64,000 nt of DNA from an uncultured candidate division Zixibacteria bacterium. Its GTDB lineage: Bacteria > Zixibacteria > MSB-5A5 > GN15 > FEB-12. Of this stretch, positions 1,859 to 30,792 are shown one piece after another. The notes under the pieces were generated by a model that did not search any database, was not told the DNA's origin, and was given only the letters and a program-made list of their open reading frames with translations. The translations under genes were made by a program, and so were the position numbers. Location of the stretch: NCBI GenBank assembly GCA_963806185.1, contig CAWDXE010000001.1:832001-896000 (forward strand), given 5' to 3'. Position 1 is the stretch's first letter, and each line of letters starts with the position of its first letter.

Positions 1859-3178
1859 TCACGGATGAAACTGCCGTACAAACTCCATTCGCTTCTTCAG
1901 CGATGGATGACTGTAAAACCAGAACTCCACTAACGCATTCGGATCAGGATCCGACAAATTGTACGCCGACAGCTTGTCAAACGCCGTCGCCGCTACTTCC
2001 CCGCTCACCCCGGTAATACGCATACCGTAAATGTCCGACTGGTGTTCCATCGAGCGACTCGCACCGTTCATTATCGGCTGCCCCACAAACAGGATAATCG
2101 TCAACAGCAGCATCACCAGCGGCAACGACGCAAAGTCCTCCAGTCGGTCAAACCGGAATGACCGCACGTTGCTTTGGATGAATCCGTGGATCAACTTGTT
2201 CACCAGCCAGAGCGCGACAATCAGGAAAATAATCGCCAGCCCCAACCCGATCCACATATGGTTCATGACATAGTGCCCCATCTCGTGGCCCATCACAAAC
2301 CGGATTTCGTCGACGGTGAAATTCTTGATCAACGTATCGAACAATACAATCCGTTTGGTATTGAACAATCCCGTGACATACGCATTGACCTTCTCCGATT
2401 GTTTAGATGCATCAACCTCGAAGACATTCGATCCTTCTATCCCCGCCTGGCTGGCCAGCGTCAAAATCTGCGTCTCAAGGTTCTTGTCCTGCAGCGGTTC
2501 GAACTTGTTGAACAAGGGCGAGATGAACACCGGCGCGACGACGATCATCAGGATCATGAACGGAATCGCTCCGAGCGAAAACACCAGCCACCAGTTCTTG
2601 AACCGCGAAATCACCCAGTAGAAGAAAAACATCGGGACAATCCCCAGTAGGATCGCAAGCCCGAGATACTTAAGCCCGTCCAGCCACCATTCCATGAACG
2701 TCTGGTTGAGAAACCCGTAGTTCCCCTCGACAACAAATTCGCGATAGTAAGACAGGGGGAAACTGAGGATGTAGTTGATGACCAGAAACAGCGCGAGATA
2801 AATCCAGGCCGAGAGGAACCGACTTTTTAACGACGATGCCCACGTGCGCAGCTTGGCCGACAAACCGGTGTACAGGAAGATGCAGAAGATCACCAGCGAC
2901 GCTATGAAATCCACGAATCGCCAGATATTCGTGAATCGCGAGTACGCGGTCAACTTCGCCTTGCGCTCCGGTGACAGCGGATACTGCACCTCGTCGGATG
3001 ATCCCCCTTGGGTGGCCGTAACCGCCACCGAATCCGACGGTGTCTGTGCGGGCGTATCCACCTGTGTGGCCGCCGCCGAATCAACGGGCACCGCGGTTGT
3101 GTCTCCTAAAATGCTGGAAACGCAGATCAGTGTAAGTCCGGCAATAATCAGTAGGCGCCAATAACCAGCCATGTGCAT
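1859..3178 (-). CDS. M48 family (Ste24/HtpX-like) membrane zinc metalloprotease
   Basis: Several TM helices, NAYVTG, HEMGH zinc motif, EHQSD and SHP. Start is probably ATG 3178 or 3172 rather than the ORF-track 3211. Confidence 0.92.
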   Translation of the reverse strand: MHMAGYWRLLIIAGLTLICVSSILGDTTAVPVDSAAATQVDTPAQTPSDSVAVTATQGGSSDEVQYPLSPERKAKLTAYSRFTNIWRFVDFIASLVIFCIFLYTGLSAKLRTWASSLKSRFLSAWIYLALFLVINYILSFPLSYYREFVVEGNYGFLNQTFMEWWLDGLKYLGLAILLGIVPMFFFYWVISRFKNWWLVFSLGAIPFMILMIVVAPVFISPLFNKFEPLQDKNLETQILTLASQAGIEGSNVFEVDASKQSEKVNAYVTGLFNTKRIVLFDTLIKNFTVDEIRFVMGHEMGHYVMNHMWIGLGLAIIFLIVALWLVNKLIHGFIQSNVRSFRFDRLEDFASLPLVMLLLTIILFVGQPIMNGASRSMEHQSDIYGMRITGVSGEVAATAFDKLSAYNLSDPDPNALVEFWFYSHPSLKKRMEFVRQFHP

Positions 3179-3280
3179 CCCCTGGTGAAGAATAATCGAA
3201 GTTGAGCCCAAAGTAGGTCCGGTTCTAAATCGTTGTCAAGCAAAACAGTAGGTGGCGCGCGACCAGTGGCGCGCAGGAAT

Positions 3281-3353: not shown

Positions 3354-3605
3354 CTATTCGTAGACTGAAACCTGTTTGCCGGTTTTGCCGACTCGTTCGT
3401 ATTTCACGACGCCGGTAATTTTAGCGAACAGCGTGTTATCCGAACCGATGCCGACATTGTGGCCCGGGCGGATCGGGGTGCCGCACTGACGGACCAGAAT
3501 CGATCCGGCCAGTACTGCCTGCCCTCCGTAGACCTTCGTCCCGCGTCGCTGACTGTTTGAGTCGCGACCGTTCTTGGACGATCCTACACCTTTTTTATGA
3601 GCCAT
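3354..3605 (-). CDS. rpmA: 50S ribosomal protein L27
   Basis: [16 protein letters not shown]...GSILVRQ.GT...G.NVG.G.DNTLFA signature. Confidence 0.99.
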
Positions 3606-3683
3606 TACAAACCTCTATCGCTGAATCGTTTTCTTTACGTAGTCAATCCGTAGGGAATGGTCTCGGCCGCCTACGGGAGCCAC

Positions 3684-3713
3684 ATAATATACACGGCTTC
3701 CTCTTTTCCGCAA
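3684..3713 (-). promoter_or_regulatory. Putative sigma70 promoter of rpmA
   Basis: TTGCGG-18 bp-TATTAT on the - strand, followed by a CCGTAGG...CCTACGG leader hairpin. Confidence 0.5.
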
Positions 3714-3780
3714 GCGAGAAGTTAACATTATGTACTAAAACGACTTACACCGTGCCGTAGGTCCTTCCCGCATGGGTATC

Positions 3781-4077
3781 GTACCCCACCGGAACGGTGG
3801 GTTCATGATTCAATGGTTTCCCCTTCACCCGCATGCTGGCGCTCTCCCCGTACCCCACCGGAACGGTGGGTTCATGATTCAATGGTTTCCCCTTCACCCG
3901 CATGCTGGCGCTCTCCCTGTAGCCCACCGGAACGGTGGGTTCATGATTCAATGGTTTCCCCTTCACCCGCATGCTGGCGCTCTCCCCGTACCCCACCGGA
4001 ACGGTGGGTTCATGATTCAATGGTTTCCCCTTCACCCGCATGCTGGCGCTCTCCCCGTACCCCACCGGAACGGTGGG
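3781..4077 (+). repeat. Tandem array of 69-bp units, each starting with REP hairpin GTA(C/G)-CCCACCG-GAA-CGGTGGG
   Basis: Units start at 3781, 3850, 3919, 3988 and 4057. The inter-hairpin sequence is near-identical between units. Unit 3 has a GTAG tag, the others GTAC. Confidence 0.97.
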
Positions 4078-4078
4078 T

Positions 4079-4615
4079 TCAGGTTTCAATGGCTTCAGTA
4101 TCCATTTCAAGTTTACATCCACGTATGCCAGCGTACCAGCGACAGCTCGACCACTCCCACTGCTCAGCTGACTTGATCAACCCCGCCCTAACTGGATTAT
4201 TGTGACAATACTCGATAGCTTTCCGTACCTCTTCTACGTTCCGGCACGATTTGTCAAAACACCGCTTGTACCATAAACTGAACCTATGCTCGTGTCCTTG
4301 CTTGGTAGTAAGCCGATCAATCAGGTAACCGCCATGTCTGCCAATCTGAACGTGAATGCGCCGCGTGCTTTCCCTCTTGATGACTCCGATGACTCCCCCC
4401 AATTCAGTCTCTGAGGGAGGCACGATTACCAAGTGTACATGATCAGGCATGATCACCCAGCCCAACAGTGAGAATTGTGCGCATGCTCGTGCCTCGGCGA
4501 TGCTATCGACGACTGCCTGGCGCGAAGAATCGTTGGAAAGCAATGGAATCTGATGACGTGTGCCAAAAGTGACGAATCGAGCCCGTCCATCGTGATCATA
4601 GTGAGTCAGAAGCAT
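4079..4615 (-). CDS. rayT: REP-associated tyrosine transposase (Y1_Tnp, IS200/IS605 TnpA-like)
   Basis: N-terminal FVTF.T, HUH motif MPDHVH, catalytic Tyr in EYCHNNPVRAG, and W.WSS. Confidence 0.93.
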   Translation of the reverse strand: MLLTHYDHDGRARFVTFGTRHQIPLLSNDSSRQAVVDSIAEARACAQFSLLGWVIMPDHVHLVIVPPSETELGGVIGVIKRESTRRIHVQIGRHGGYLIDRLTTKQGHEHRFSLWYKRCFDKSCRNVEEVRKAIEYCHNNPVRAGLIKSAEQWEWSSCRWYAGIRGCKLEMDTEAIET

Positions 4616-4670
4616 AGAAGCGTCACATCACGTAGGAGTGAATCGGCGGCAATAACCTCGCCCCCGTACT

Positions 4671-5036
4671 GTACCCCACCGGAACGGTGGGTTCATGATT
4701 CAATGGTTTCCCCTTCACCCGCATGCTGGCGCTCTCCTCGTACCCCACCGGAACGGTGGGTTCATGATTCAATGGTTCCCCCTTCACCCGCATGCTGGCG
4801 CTCCCCCCGTACCCCACCGGAACGGTGGGTTCATGATTCAATGGTTCCCCCTTCACCCGCATGCTGGCGCTCCCCCCGTACCCCACCGGAACGGTGGGTT
4901 CATGATTCAATGCTTTCCCCTTTACGCCAGGCTGCTCTCATCATCCGCCAACGTCTCTGGCCACACAAGACATCCAAATTCACCCACACGCCGGTTATAG
5001 CCAATGAACTTCAAGCCCACCGTTCCGGTGGGCTAC
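4671..5036 (+). repeat. Second 69-bp REP array plus one inverted REP
   Basis: Units start at 4671, 4740, 4809 and 4878 (the last decays). Inverted GTAG-tagged copy CCCACCGTTCCGGTGGGCTAC at 5016-5036. Confidence 0.96.
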
Positions 5037-5051
5037 CGAAATCCACCCCCC

Positions 5052-8000
5052 TTACTCGCACCCCACCTTCAGCGGCTCGAACGTGATGAACAGATGATTT
5101 ATCAGCGCCGTCAAATCCCCGATATCCACCTGACAATCCCCCGTCACATCCGCCACCAACGGCGGCTCGATCGGCTCGAAGGTTATGAAGAGATTATTGA
5201 TCAACGTTGTCAAATCCCCGATATCCGTCCCGTGCGAATGATCAACATCCCCCAGCGTCCAGGTCCAGAATTCCTTCGTCGCGGCGAGCGTGCTCGCATG
5301 CTGACGGTCCCACGCCGTCACCCGCCACCAGTAATGCGTCCCGAACTCCAGCGAATCGGAAATCGTAAACGACGTTCGCCAACAGCGAATCCCGCACATA
5401 CGCAAACGCGAAATTCGCCCGATCCGAAACCTCCAGCTTATACCGCACCGTATCCTGCGGATCGAGATCGACCGCCGTCTGCCAGACAAACTGCGGCAGA
5501 AGATTGAACACCGGCTTGTTATCCGGCATCGGTGGCGATGTCAGCGCGAATGCCGCCGGCGGCTCATTGGCACCATTGACCAGGAACTGACCATACGATG
5601 TCCACGCCGAGTACTCAAACCCGTCGAACGCCCGCACCCGCCACCAGTACCGGCAGTTCTCCGCCAGCGCCTCGATAATCGCGCCTGCGGTGGAGTCTTG
5701 CCCCGACGGTACATTGGTCAATTCAATCGCCGGCCCCGCCACACAGTCGGTGTCGTGGAACCCGGCGAAATCGTAGGTGAGCGGATCGTTTTCGGCGTCT
5801 GACGAATTGCTGACCCACAGATTGGGGTAACTTCCGACGATCGCCATATTGATCGGCCCGATCATCACCGGCACCGCGGGCACGGAATTCATGCGGAACG
5901 AACTGTAATACCACGGCGACCAGAGCGTGCCGTTATAGACGCGAAGTCTCAGGTAGTAGGTCTGCCCGTCGCTAAGGGGCGAACCGTTGTAGACGACGAA
6001 CGTATCGCTCGACACCACCGGCGCCGGATTCCACATCTCGGAGTAGGTCCACTCGTTATCGGACCCAACCGCGATTTCGAACTGGGTCTGGGATCCCACC
6101 GGCGAGCCCCCATACCCCCATGTCAGGACGGGGAGAGTATTCATCACATGTACGTTGGTCATCACACCATCTACATCCACATGATTCAGTTCGAATACAG
6201 AGCTGTCTGCAGGAACGCTGTTCGCTCTGAAAGCAGCCGAAATGATGTCACTTTCGGTGTTTCCGGCCAGAATGGCAAAGCTGACCGTATCCACGGCGTT
6301 TGGCGCCAAGCTGATCGGCCCGGCCGACACAACCTGCACGATATCGGTAGCGGCGCCGATCTGCGTTGTCGCCGTTGCAAACCCATTGGTCAAGGACGTA
6401 TACTTCTCATCCGAAGTGAAACCGTTGCCACCCCAAAACGGAATCCAAGCGGTGGAGCCGAGCGCAGTCCAGGCAGATGCCCAGTCTCCTTCGATCACTT
6501 TGGCCCCGCGAAAATCAGATTTCGTACCACTGCTGTTTTGCGCCACCCAAGCCACATGGTTGGTTGCGTCATAGGCGCCGCAGTTGGGAGCGGGACTCTG
6601 GTTGATATACGGCGTCTCCCAGTCCATATATAGCCCGACATACATCGAAGGGATCGCCGAACCGCTGATGTTCTTGACAATGTACCTGATGATCAAAAAA
6701 TCATCGTTTGGCGCGGCCTGGCCGAAAGTCTCCTGGGTAACTTCGACGCCGATCGGCGACGCCGCCCCGTCGTCGGTGAACATCGACCGTGTTATGGTAA
6801 GTGATCCGGCGGTCGTCACTTGAAGATTCCCGTCTGCAACGGGAGTGAAATCGCGATCAGGCTCGAAACTGATACTGTGTACCGCGCTTGGCACCTGACC
6901 AAAGCCGGTGCCGATCATGAGCCCACCCTCCAGCAGCTGATTGCCTGAGGCATTAAACTTGAAGCCGACACCACCTGCTGGAAAACCGAGATTCGGACCA
7001 AGCCCCACGGCACCCCAATTGCTGACGCTCAACTGGATCTTGCCGGTGCTGTGCGTGTAGAGCTGGCGTGTCACCTTCGGGGAGACGAGCACAGACAGAG
7101 TTGTAGAAACGTCGCCGAAACCCGTGCCGGAAATCAACACCGACATCGGCAGGACGGCCCCCTCAAGTGCCGATGAATCGACGACTACTTTGATGATGTC
7201 GAGCGCCTTGCCGGTATCCAGCGCCGTGATCGTCCCAAACGATGCCGCACCGTCGATGACAGTCAACAGCGGGTCGGCCGACTGAACGTTGAGCGTCACG
7301 TTGCTGCCGGTCGCGTTACCCGTGTTCTGGAGTACTACGTACCCGGTGAGAGTGTCGCCGGGACCGACCTGATTCGCGATCAAATCGTACACGCTCAGCA
7401 GCGGCGAAGCCGCAGGCGCCGGCAGAGCGGCCAGAGGCCGCCACGCAGTCGATCTGTCCCCAACCGTAATCATTGTTGGGCAACGCTCCCCAATTTGAGC
7501 CGGGTGCAGCCGCCGCTGAATTCAGTATGGCCGTTTTGATCTGCGCCGGAGTCGCATTCGGGTTCTTCTGGCGCATCAGCGCCACCAGGCCGGAGACATG
7601 CGGAGCCGCCATTGACGTGCCCGACATGAAGCCGGTCGTGTTGGTCGGAATAGTGGAAAGTATGTTGGTACCCGGAGCGACGACGTTTGGCTTCACCATC
7701 CCTGCCTGGCAGGGGGACGGCCCACGCGACGATGATCCGCTGAGTACCGGCGGACTGACGGTAGAATTGAGATTGCCAATGGCAAAACAGTCAATGGTGC
7801 TCAGCGCCCGCTCGGCCGGATTGCGCGGTCCGGTAGCGCCTTCATTGCCAACCGCAAAAATATTCACGATTCCAAGAGCTTCGGTATTGTCGATGGCCTC
7901 GTAATAGATGTCCATACATTCGAAACCCTGGAAACCCCAACTGTGGTTGATCACGTCGGGCATATCCTCTACGGTCGACGGATTCCCATCGGGATCAGCG

Positions 8001-8863
8001 GCCCATTCAAAGGCGTCCAGTATCGATGCGTCGACATCGACCACACCGGCCGAGATCCACTTGGCACCCGGGGCTACACATAGCGTATCGCCGGTGGCGG
8101 GGTTGCGCCCTACCATAATACCCATGGTGTGCGTGCCATGGTTGCGGGAGCTAGGGTCAACTGACGAAATCAGATGTGGGTATTTCAATTTATCGATCGG
8201 GTCAAACCAGGCGGCAGCAGAGTCACCGTCGGTCCCCTTCCACGTACCGCTCAGTCCGGCGTTTGTGCCTTCAACGCCGGAGTCAAAAGAACAGACTATT
8301 CTTCCCCGGCCGGTATACCCCAGCAACCAAGCGAGATTGGCCTTTATGTAGGTGATATTACTCGCTACGCCTGCCGCGCTCGGTGGCAAGTCACGGCTAC
8401 TGGATTCTTCCACCGGAGCAATGAGGGTCGGGCGCGGGATCGTGGTCACCAACTCAACATCAGGACGCGCCGCCAGAGCGAGCAATGCACTCACCGGGAC
8501 TTCTGCCTCCACGACATTGGCAATCCAGTGGCCTTTTGGCGGACGGGTTGCCCTGCCTTTTCCGAGCGAGGATAGTTCATCCAGCAGGCGTGTCTGCGCC
8601 ATCCGGCTGTTATCGCGCAGCGCTTGAATAGTCTCACGGTGGCGGACAGCCGGGGGAAGCGTCTGGTCGGCAGCGATACCTCTTGCATCCATGCGAATGG
8701 AGGGTGGCGCCACCTTGATCCAGACCCGGACCAGGCTGGTATCGGGCAGACTCTGGACCCGTGCCAAAAGATCGGAAGAGAGTTCCCCCGCCACGCCGGC
8801 TGAGGTGAGAGCGACGAGAAGCAAGATGAAGCCGATATGCACTTGACTAGTGAGCTTTCGCAT
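5052..8863 (-). CDS. Large secreted S8 subtilase (bacillopeptidase F-like) with beta-sandwich domains and a C-terminal dockerin-like pair; two apparent frameshifts (~7440, ~5390)
   Basis: Joined from ORFs 7316-8884, 5242-7473 and 5052-5489. Triad motifs FDSG, NHGTHTMG and GTSMAAPHV; signal peptide; C-terminal GDVDHSHGTDIGDLTTLINNLF / ADVTGDCQVDIGDLTALINHLF. Confidence 0.88.
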
Positions 8864-8884
8864 AAGAGAATACCTCCAGCACAA

Positions 8885-8995
8885 TCAGTTTCGAGAGCAC
8901 AACCCTACGTTGCGGATCCGATGACGCTGCCCGTACACCGGAAGGCATACTGCGGCAAACAGGAAAATCACCACCCCGCGCATACTCGCTCTCAT
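8885..8995 (-). CDS. Putative 36-aa small protein with a signal-peptide-like N-terminus
   Basis: MRASMRGVVIFLFAAVCLPVYGQRHRIRNVGLCSRN, preceded by an SD-like GAGGGTGAT, lying between a promoter and the subtilase start. Confidence 0.4.
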   Translation of the reverse strand: MRASMRGVVIFLFAAVCLPVYGQRHRIRNVGLCSRN

Positions 8996-9054
8996 ATCAC
9001 CCTCGGAGATTAGTACCAGTCGAACGTGTGAACTGTCGGTCTTTGTGTGCTGTA

Positions 9055-9089
9055 CCCCCAATATACCCCCACCCCCTCCCCCACGTCAA
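9055..9089 (-). promoter_or_regulatory. Putative sigma70 promoter overlapping a G-quadruplex motif
   Basis: The - strand reads TTGACG-T-G5-A-G5-T-G5-TATATT-G5. Confidence 0.6.
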
Positions 9090-9343
9090 TGAAAAATGGA
9101 TAACTCAGGCTGTGACAGATTCTGTCAGTGCTTGCGCCGACGTGCCAAAACCAATTCAGCGATCGCAAACAGATATCACAAAAACCGTAACCTCTTGCCT
9201 CCCCGCCACCTGACTCTCTACAAGATTGTAGCACTTCGCTACAAAGTGTGGAACCGGGGCCCTTTTATATAGAGACGCATCAACAAACGAACCGGTTCGT
9301 CCGCGTCCTCTCCGTCCCACTGCTGGGGCGCCCCGCATAATTT

Positions 9344-10020
9344 AGGTGGCGTGGCGTCAGGCCGGGTGGCGTTGGCAACGAACAGCGTAAGCTGTCCGGA
9401 TGCCTCCCGACCTGATTGCCCACGTAGGTACTATTTTTCAAAGGAGTCTTCATGTCCCCCGTTCTTTCCTCCCCCGTCGCACCGTCCGCCCCCCGCGCCT
9501 CCCTGTCTGCTGCGCACGCTCTATTCTGTGGCTGGCGTACGTCTCGTGCGCCAGCCCTTCCCCCCCGCGTGGCGCACGGGACGTACGCCACGCACTGAGC
9601 TGAAAGATCGCCACGGCGCTCGGAAGCGCCTCGCGATGACGCGCAGGTAAATTCGGTGGCCATTGAGATCCTGAACCTTTAAGAAAAGGTTCAGGACGAC
9701 GAACGGGAGAAAGTGATTCAGGATGACGAGGGGTGAATCGTAGGTCGGGTTCCGAAGTTTGCCGCAGGCAAACGTAGAAACCCGACACGATGTGCTGCCC
9801 CTCTTGCTCCCTCTCCCTCCGGGAGTGGGCTGGGGTGACGGCCGGTGGGGCCACGAGTAGAACAAGTAGGGGTCCGCCAAACGTAAGATCGAGAAGAGAA
9901 GATGGCAAACCCCTTGATAAATGGAAAATGGGGTTTGCTCTACGGGATCATCGCAGCTGCCCCTCTTGCTCTCTCTCCCTCCGGGAGTGGGTCGAGGTGA
10001 GGGCATGTAAGTCGGGTCCT
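9344..10020. repeat. Intergenic island of mixed palindromic (REP-like) repeats
   Basis: Double hairpin at 9530-9595; GTC-tagged hairpins at 9600-9640 and 9666-9727 (- strand); GTAG hairpin at 9740-9788; two CCCTCTCCC..GGGAG.GGG elements at ~9794 and ~9956. Confidence 0.85.
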
Positions 10021-10084
10021 CCCCCCACATCACCGCCCATGCTCCGCATGCGGCGGTAATCGTGTTCCCCAAATTACCCCATAC

Positions 10085-10117
10085 AAAAACCCCGCGCTCG
10101 TCTCAGAACGCGGGGCC
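10085..10117 (-). terminator. Intrinsic terminator after clpC
   Basis: CCCCGCG...CGCGGGG stem next to an A5 tract on + (U tract on -). Confidence 0.7.
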
Positions 10118-10144
10118 AATAGTCAATTCAATCGGCGCTGTGTC

Positions 10145-12602
<2,458 letters not shown>

Positions 12603-16322: not shown

Positions 16323-16500
16323 GCGAACTGTGCCGACCTTTCCCGGCGCCGCCAGTCGGCTCAGGCGAGGAGTGCGCCGTGGCGCACGGACCTGCTTTAG
16401 GTGGAGTATATGGCCTCCCCGCCGACAAATGCAACGTCTTTCATCTCATAATGATACGTTACACAGTACCTCAAAGTCGAGCCAAATAAATGGGTGGAAA

Positions 16501-16722
16501 ACGTAGGGCGGAACTCATTTGCGATCACCACAGGTTACGCATCACCGGACGGAACGGGCAACGTAGGGCGGAACTCTCTTGCGATCACCAAAGGTTATGC
16601 ATCACCGGACGGAACGCGCAACGTAGGGCGGAACGCTCTTGCGATCACCAAAGGTTATGCATCACCGGACGGAACGCGCATTGAACACAGCCGTCAATCA
16701 GCGCAAGGGAGTTCCGCCCTAC
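16501..16722 (+). repeat. Three 60-bp tandem units carrying GTAGGGCGGAAC, closed by one inverted copy
   Basis: Units at 16501, 16561 and 16621; reverse-complement arm CGCAAGGGAGTTCCGCCCTAC at 16702-16722. Confidence 0.93.
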
Positions 16723-16761: not shown

Positions 16762-17160
16762 GTCATGGCGAGGCCCCCCCACAAACGTCATCGCGAGGCT
16801 CTCCCCCACAAACGTCATCGCGAGGCTCGCTTCGAGCCGTGGCGATCTTTCAGTTCTCTTCTTTTGTAGGTCAGGATCCCCGCTTCCGAGCGGGTGATCC
16901 TGACGCTCTGTTCAGCAAGGACGGCATCCCCACGCATACACACCGCTCGTCGCGCAGTGTCGTCCTGAGCGCCCCCCACCGTCGTCCTGAGCGCTCCCCC
17001 ACCGTCGTCCTGAGCGCCCCCCCACCGTCGTCCTGAGCGCTCCCCCACCGTCGTCCTGAGCGCAGTCGAAGGACGAGATAGTCAGCGTTAATGCGTGGCG
17101 TACGCCCCGTGCGCCAAGCAGGGTGAAAGAAGGCTGGCGCACGAGACGCACGCCAGCCAT
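16762..17160. repeat. Intergenic island of mixed REP-like hairpins with stuttered half-sites
   Basis: GTCAT(C/G)GCGAGGC x3 (16762, 16787, 16814); GTAG hairpin at 16867-16905; GTCGTCCTGAGCGC x5 (16959-17076); double hairpin at 17093-17158. Confidence 0.9.
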
Positions 17161-30310: not shown

Positions 30311-30792
30311 GTAGTAGGTCAGGGGCCTCGCGCCCCTGACAGAAGGCTGCACTGCGGCATCAGAATAGAACGTCAGGATCACCCGCTAAGAAGCGGGGAT
30401 CCTGACCTACAAGACACTTACTTCTCCCCAAGGTCATCCCCGCCCTCCCCAATGTCATCCCCGCCCTCCCCAATGTCATCCCCGCCCTCCCCAATGTCAT
30501 CCCCGCCTTGAGCGGGGATCTATCCTCGGCACCAATGCGCCAAGTGACCATCTCTGCACAGCGGGTGTGATCCATCAGCAAAAGAGAGCTGAGAGATCGC
30601 CACGGCGCGAAGCGCGCCTCGCGATGACATCATAGGCGGATTTCATCTGTATTCGCGTATCACGGCGCTCACTCTTCCTCCCTCTCCCTCTGGGAGAGGG
30701 TTGGAGTGAGGGCCAAGTACGCTGAAGCGGCCGGCGAACGAGAGGTACGCCGGCCATAACCGACCGTCAGGCTCGCAGGGAGCCTGACCTAC
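30311..30792. repeat. Intergenic REP island between the convergent kinase gene and lysS
   Basis: GTAG hairpins at ~30314, 30371-30410 and 30766-30792; 21-bp stutter GTCATCCCCGCC x4 (30433-30521); GTC hairpin at 30589-30628; CCCTCTCCC element at 30678-30714; GGCCGGCG..CGCCGGCC at ~30729. Confidence 0.9.

Follow-up and report, generated by a model that had tools for sequence, protein, structure and literature searches.

A lineage of RAYT (TnpA-REP) genes, whose members are mostly labelled Zixibacteria, carries naturally varied guide tags, and the ends of its elements appear to follow a guide rule. This is the more interesting result of the analysis. In the window, i.e. the whole stretch of 64,000 nucleotides analysed, a RAYT gene of this lineage lies between tandem arrays of a GTAC-tagged REP, an arrangement that is unusually large but not unique and less novel than the varied guides of the lineage. 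The reading slightly preferred here is that GTAC guides cutting after GT instead of CT and that the arrays expanded as an enzyme re-copied one REP-plus-tail unit locally. That some RAYT built these arrays is fairly probable; that the window enzyme itself did so is put forward tentatively, as a nearly balanced case.

The RAYT gene and its REP arrays

The locus is almost certainly a RAYT-REP system (Table 1). The 178-residue protein scores 104.9 bits with the RAYT model NF047646 (cut-off 80) and 24.7 bits with the IS200 model NF033573, below its cut-off of 55. It reads YCHNNP at the position of the Y-x3-Q motif of IS200/IS605 transposases, and Pfam detects only Y1_Tnp in it. The best Foldseek match of its predicted structure (mean pLDDT 89.9) is 4ER8, the E. 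coli TnpA-REP (E 4.4e-10). The catalytic residues H59-V-H61, Y136, N140 and P141 are present and invariant in 54 homologues retrieved at E <= 1e-30, in agreement with the earlier note, made from the sequence alone, which had described a RAYT with its HUH motif and tyrosine kept. The gene is flanked by REPs in inverted orientation with the tag 5' of the hairpin, the inverted copy upstream and unit 5 downstream, and eight extra same-strand copies lie beyond this bracketing pair. Cognate REPs are dispersed in the genome at low copy number. TIRYTs (TIRtrons) have long REP-unrelated TIRs and, in subclass 2.1, a C-terminal HTH; the ends found here are REP tag-hairpins.

Table 1. Features of the RAYT locus and of its downstream neighbour (window positions)
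Feature	Position	Strand	Remarks
rpmA (ribosomal protein L27)	3354..3605	-	downstream neighbour
Left array	3781..4077	+	four full 69-bp units (tag, 7-bp hairpin, 48-nt tail) and the tag-hairpin of unit 5
Left-array unit starts	3781, 3850, 3919, 3988, 4057	+	period 69
Unit 5	4057..4094	+	canonical downstream REP of the RAYT; tag-hairpin 4057-4077
RAYT / TnpA-REP gene	4079..4615	-	178 aa, intact; NF047646, PF01797, Foldseek
W115-R125 segment WYKRCFDKSCR	4241..4273	-	aligned to E. coli W94-R104 (tag-binding region)
Codon of G18	4562..4564	-	aligned to E. coli N19
Lone extra GTAC	4666..4669	+	one base before unit 6
Right array	4671..4898	+	three full 69-bp units and the tag-hairpin of unit 9, all GTAC
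Right-array unit starts	4671, 4740, 4809, 4878	+	period 69
REPIN-like dimer	4878..5036		unit 9 and inverted copy, tags outermost: GTAC left, GTAG right
Inverted GTAG-tagged copy	5016..5036	-	canonical upstream REP, RAYT orientation

The coordinates and TRF agree on the layout given earlier, five and four head-to-tail 69-bp units on the same strand and a single inverted copy. TRF reports 4.6 copies on the left and 3.7 on the right, with 97% matches, no indels and scores of 599 and 469 (threshold 50). The 7-bp stem with its GAA loop was the same on re-examination, and re-reading the tags of the ten copies again gave GTAC eight times and GTAG twice, at 3919 and in the inverted copy; the canonical tag would be GT[AG]G. 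The inverted copy had been taken for a closing copy of the arrays. It is present, and is better described as the upstream REP of the canonical arrangement, which at the same time makes up one half of a dimer; this dimer is the only inverted doublet, as found in BIMEs and REPINs, among otherwise single same-strand REPs. The arrays are local and, judged by their homogeneity, recent, each of the seven full units differing from the consensus by 0-2 nt; units 7 and 8 have two changes in common. The tails of units 5 and 9 differ from the consensus at 23/69 and 18/69 positions, and that of unit 5 is, on the minus strand, the last codons and stop of the RAYT itself. Copies of the same unit stand on either side of the gene, at a distance of 614 bp. 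The start of each array block lies 0-1 base from the tag, as would be expected after a cut within the palindromic tag and equally after a crossover anywhere in the shared core. The lone GTAC before unit 6 is possibly a junction scar.

The segment WYKRCFDKSCR had been singled out as departing from the usual RAYT motif. It is present, although most of it is a lineage signature (R-C-[YF]-D..CR): the consensus WQ[RK]RC[YF]DHNCR is common to the homologues, so that within W115-R125 only Y116, K122 and S123 are private to the window protein. The protein differs at five conserved positions, with H122K in 0/164 and N123S in 2/164 of the other sequences.

No near-identical copy of the element was found in this genome, and its RAYT paralogs are only 28-53% identical. 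A whole-genome search for the exact 17-nt hairpin, as the earlier note had proposed, returned 13 copies, ten at the locus and three on another contig, the latter all GTAC. Related copies outside the array amount to 33 with GTAC and 8 with GTAG, some of them counted from both feet. The dimer (fold z -3.1) aligns with three other GTAC/GTAG dimers of the genome that have the same spacing of ~150 nt. Judging from this alignment, the locus probably consisted at first of dimer, gene and REP, in that order, before unit 9 gained three units and unit 5 four. The 48-nt tail of the unit aligns to the unit 9 spacer with a score of 62.

Several other REP arrangements occur in this genome (G000). Contigs C1, C6 and C7 carry double-foot REPs, often paired, in which one foot is GTAC and the opposite one GTAC or of the GTAT type (e.g. 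C6:227911-227981, C7:76934-76953). Near-identical REP-led direct repeats ~1.2 and ~1.4 kb apart enclose genes at C1:462178-463425, where the ORF is methyltransferase-like, and at C1:491186-492591; both pairs resemble small composite elements. A distant RAYT at C5:283414-284705 lies between tandem GTAG dimers (126 bp x 3.1, 128 bp x 1.8) in a classical BIME-like layout, and an 85-bp x 3.8 tandem array with 97% identity at C3:11519-11845 apparently contains a REP half. A second head-to-tail array is found in the window itself at 16500-16680 (60 bp x 3), in which a GTAG tag and half a hairpin from another REP family head every unit; arrays therefore do not need GTAC. Tandem repeats of 27, 23 and 21 bp, made of the ends of other palindromic families, lie at 16762-17063 and 30424-30507 of the window, and such short repeats are scattered throughout the genome.

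A RAYT lies upstream of rpmA in 2/15 loci examined, the other one being 41% identical and GTGG-tagged, and clpC abuts rpmA in several relatives; the window element is therefore probably an insertion. Forty relatives match only rpmA and neighbouring genes, with no same-genus relative among them for a comparison of filled and empty sites. The clpC-rpmA interval (window 3606-10144) is ~6.5 kb long here and short in several relatives, and in another genome (G005) it holds an unrelated GTGG-tagged RAYT. It may be an insertion hot spot. The clpC gene of the window (10145-12602) is broken into four segments that occupy three frames, probably through assembly indels, and the peptidase genes at 5052-8884 also look frame-split.

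Natural tags and element ends in the lineage

The lineage set comprises 205 loci in 165 clusters at 90% identity, with both bracketing REPs in 93. The tags are GTAC in 34 clusters, GTGG in 33, GTGC in 29, mixed in 14, GTAG in 9, GTAA in 5, GTCG in 5 and GTAT in 2; the hairpin finder takes C-x-C-R-Y stems only, so 32/165 clusters score zero copies and other stems are missed. A further tag, GTCC, is found at both ends of one locus (L274) together with Asn18. Without any tag filter, GT stands at the outer side of the hairpin in 82/87 upstream and 80/89 downstream REPs of the first 136 clusters, and at the inner side in 7/87 and 5/89. The tag changes 34 times on a quick tree of 117 rows, which leaves out the 14 mixed-tag loci and the loci without a found REP. 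The tags of the two ends agree in 79/93 elements; this agreement is no higher than that of stem and loop positions and may therefore reflect end homogenisation. With very high confidence GTAC is a natural tag of the lineage. The non-canonical GTAC of the locus, reported earlier, is real but not a product of local drift: no other tag is as common in the lineage or in the family of this genome.

The tag varies together with the element ends. In 90/224 ends, tag bases 3-4 recur as the dinucleotide that starts at -6 or -5, counted from the tag (shuffled mean 37.2, maximum 55); in 134/224 they do not. Offsets -7 to -24 are flat; offset -2 is also raised, largely through GG before GTGG. No matching dinucleotide was seen at -6/-5 for GTCG (0/10 ends) and GTAT (0/6 ends). 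In 42 held-out new clusters, obtained after 46/88 loci had been dropped as >=90% identical to the discovery set, 16/51 ends match against 8.9 expected (23/5000 shuffles), a weaker effect. Among the 16 closest differently tagged pairs, which are not strictly independent, 49 ends show their own dinucleotide 23 times and their partner's once; a strict test on independent pairs, underpowered with 2-5 pairs per tag, was not significant. In this genome AC precedes 19/33 GTAC copies and 0/8 GTAG copies, and AG precedes 4/8 GTAG copies and 0/33 GTAC copies; no AG peak was found at the 86 other GTAG REPs of the genome. Two other pairing arrangements were tried. A T2/N4 scheme gave no signal (20 observed, 21 expected), and the tag-strand reverse complement of bases 3-4 is found in 23/224 ends against 13.4 at -6, a weak excess which does not support a strict IS608-like left-end target.

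On the opposite strand the end site reads GT for GTAC, GC for GTGC, CC for GTGG, CT for GTAG and TT for GTAA, which is the cut site that a guide model would predict, 3-4 bases beyond the inverted tag. Homology between related elements in different contexts stops within a few bases of the tags, and in the GTAC pairs L023/L024, L055/L097, L014/L055 and L081/L084 it starts at AC or ends at GT. Since the tag changes together with the element-end sequence across relatives, the tag likely sets the cut site in the lineage. The shifted tag specificity suggested earlier for the window enzyme is, at the scale of the lineage, well supported by this covariation, which is a comparison of sequences.

One residue of the protein also follows the tag. 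Residue 18 aligns to E. coli N19, adjacent to the R21 position; N19 does not appear in the main text of the E. coli structure paper (PMC3479197). Serine is found at residue 18 in 52/62 rows with G at tag base 3 and in 2/48 with A, and asparagine in 5/5 with C (L204 and L055, with a gap and a shifted N-terminus, are not in this table). Cysteine occupies it in 28/34 GTAC rows. The held-out set gives Ser in 16/19 (G3) and 1/6 (A3) and Asn in 4/4 (C3). Residue 18 follows the tag in 12/13 close pairs, against 8 for the next-best column; for tag base 4 the best column follows in 7/17 pairs, which is unconvincing. The glycine of the window protein is ambiguous: among A3 rows G18 occurs with GTAG in three, GTAC in two (one of them the window locus) and GTAT in two. 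A same-lineage RAYT fragment of this genome (C1:501875-502116) has Ser18 and a GTGG-tagged upstream REP, in keeping with the pattern. Residue 18 is regarded as a candidate protein code for tag base 3, and as a lead only, because just two pairs lie on well-supported branches.

Whole elements of the lineage also occur in more than one copy. In L231:1412-2907 (G240) an entire GTAA-tagged RAYT element is duplicated in tandem with 97% identity and AA junctions, and two 590-bp whole elements of another genome (G137, L307:792-1381 and 2630-3219) are 99.7% identical in different flanks, with a third partial copy. A pair of identical copies in G065 was set aside as overlapping contig ends and not transposition. 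A broader picture may be drawn, somewhat less securely than the role of the window enzyme: the lineage could be a still-mobile, self-contained element in which the cut dinucleotide (GT, GC, CC, CT or TT) is dictated by tag bases 3-4, tag base 3 is encoded on the protein side by residue 18 (Ser, Cys/Gly or Asn), and cutting at a fixed point just beyond the inverted tag shifts whole elements and gives rise to REP arrays like that of the window.

Origin of the window arrays

The starting point of the proposed route is the RAYT fold with its catalytic residues and the canonical bracketing tag-hairpins. By analogy with the E. coli structure, the enzyme would bind the hairpin on single-stranded DNA, hold G1-T2 and free bases 3-4 for pairing with the cut site. 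The covariation suggests that the ends of lineage elements lie at the complementary dinucleotide, a few bases past the inverted tag; cuts at this end site and at a second like site would lead to whole-element moves, circles and tandem duplications. In the window, the older layout of dimer, RAYT and inverted REP would have taken up a 69-nt right-end fragment (REP and 48-nt tail) on three occasions at unit 9 and on four at unit 5. Strand transfer or rolling re-copying could have brought this about inside the shared 25-bp core, whose tag contains GT. The nick-primed rolling or stuttering synthesis suggested by the earlier note matches published models of BIME amplification; the window junctions, however, have no AC at -4 to -6, lie in C/T-rich microhomology and fit slippage equally well.

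Comparison across the lineage bears on this point. The window locus has the most REP copies of the 165 clusters (10; next 7). A held-out locus from an independent assembly (L250) has eight head-to-tail units of 49-50 bp beside a lineage RAYT, one of them with a deviating tag, which shows that arrays of this kind are not confined to one assembly, and a TRF array containing a REP-like word is present in 24/136 representative loci. Nine of 14 lineage duplications begin <=8 nt from a tag, with 3.5 expected, which favours an enzyme-set boundary, although the hairpin could bias slippage too. AC stands at all three junction points in 3/5 simple GTAC duplications, and only 4/14 duplications begin with the tag dinucleotide.

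The arrays could also have grown without a transposase. The first duplication would then come from a slip, stimulated by the hairpin, between the tail's C/T-rich end and the C-rich stretch that precedes the tag, and slippage or unequal recombination would have expanded both blocks, next to a local RAYT that is decayed or prefers GTAG. The pyrimidine runs at the unit junctions, which lack the lineage end site, agree with this, as do Y116, K122 and S123 in the window protein, the GTAG tag of its own upstream REP and the wealth of short tandem repeats of other palindromic families in the genome. Such an origin is nevertheless considered unlikely: it leaves the identical unit type on both sides of the gene to be accounted for, the gene is intact with all catalytic residues kept, and lineage duplications begin near the tag in excess of expectation, several with the predicted junction dinucleotide. 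It is less probable again that the 53%-identical paralog made the arrays in trans, the window gene being a passenger. The paralog has the GTAC-typical C18 and GTAC at both ends, and the unit tail aligns weakly to its right-end tail (score 44, shuffled maximum 41), but its hairpins differ from those of the locus at the stem tip and loop, its own ends are single copies, and the unit tail is closer to the tail of unit 9.

An assembly artefact would be very surprising. Three read runs cover rpmA-like bits only, with no reads over the locus (one run contained 0.17 of the words), and clpC changes frame three times in the window; the assembly therefore has indel errors, and single-base variants between units (C/T) may be errors. 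The units are nonetheless not identical, units 7 and 8 being marked by their two common changes, and the L250 array, the REP-like words in other TRF arrays and the 34 GTAC clusters all come from beyond this assembly. The regular spacing of a hairpin repeat also recalls a CRISPR-like locus, or one that makes small RNAs, with a function of its own, a reading that is scarcely credible given near-identical linkers in place of unique spacers, no Cas1 found in this 82%-complete genome and no Rfam match at gathering level. The two sub-threshold Rfam matches both lie outside the arrays, and a promoter and terminator scan gave one and zero sites, at chance. Enzyme-driven re-copying of one REP-plus-tail unit remains the slightly preferred account.

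Relation to known systems and meaning

The window system resembles the E. coli TnpA-REP (YafM) REPtron (4ER8; Quentin subclass 2.2, Bertels group 2) in its fold, HUH and Y-x3-NP motifs, W/R/D/R tag-binding segment, SS tail motif, tag 5' of the hairpin and tandem repeats beside the gene. It differs from it by a short perfect stem, by arrays of single REPs instead of BIMEs and by the replacement of F98 with C and of W99 with Y or F. Tag bases 3-4 are free here, whereas GTAG is required in E. coli. The E. coli structure predicts that G1-T2 are fixed and bases 3-4 free, and a G4C change with a compensating site gave no rescue, as far as the consulted portion of that report goes (PMC3479197). E. 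coli REPtrons do not appear mobile as units in the account of PMC3333891, in the portion consulted, in contrast to the signs of unit movement in whole elements of the lineage; circle and rolling models of tandem amplification are given in the same portion.

Marinomonas TnpA-Mb and Stenotrophomonas TnpA-Sm (group 3, subclass 2.5) have short perfect hairpins, as here, and the tag of TnpA-Mb acts as a guide, like that proposed here. In the portion consulted of PMC8266576, an engineered change from GTAG to GTAC moves in vitro cleavage by the Marinomonas enzyme to GT and GA, and abolishes cleavage by the Stenotrophomonas enzyme. The natural tags of both are GTAG, whereas reprogrammed tags are natural here, and the covariation fits A3/N4 and not T2/N4 pairing. 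IS200/IS605 TnpA (IS608, ISDra2) likewise uses a guide tetranucleotide to select its cut site, is retargetable and has element-like ends; here the ends are inverted symmetric REPs and there is no tnpB.

The tag itself is already on record. The main text of PMC6006769 gives GT[AG]G, and its Table S1 (Quentin 2018) lists GTGC, GTAC and GTAT feet before CCCAC...GTGGG stems for RAYT/TIRYT-like genes of Acidobacteria, e.g. ACO33629.1; these stems are longer than those of the lineage, the comparison resting on REP feet alone, and the consulted text of that paper makes no link from the feet to cut sites or residues. GYAG, GYRG, GTRG, GTMG and GTGG, and not GTAC, are the tags in the consulted portions of PMC3733652 and four supplements, which also describe clusters of reiterated singletons and TIRYTs. 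Evenly spaced REP arrays (PMC3116915), RAYTs bracketed by inverted GT[AG]G REPs (PMC2817692) and low duplication rates (PMC5581495) are reported in the consulted portions of these papers. Tandem REP clusters such as the GI arrays of P. fluorescens SBW25, the reiterated singletons of Di Nocera and the E. coli BIME-2 share evenly spaced same-strand units with conserved linkers; in the window, by contrast, one unit type brackets the RAYT on both sides and carries GTAC. No report of covariation of the tag with ends or residues, or of the lineage itself, was found in the searchable literature, which excludes subscription papers and figure-only supplements.

The result bears on how RAYTs choose their cut sites and how REPs spread in living cells. 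The guide function has so far been seen with engineered tags only, in one enzyme, and failed in two others. In the lineage no fewer than seven tags occur naturally, the end dinucleotides match them and one residue covaries, which makes cut-site choice accessible to swap experiments, with the cut positions predicted in advance. The lineage also suggests that REP-bounded RAYT genes may still be moving as units, standing between insertion sequences and domesticated RAYTs, and that they could supply small nickases for single-stranded DNA that differ in their dinucleotide specificity.
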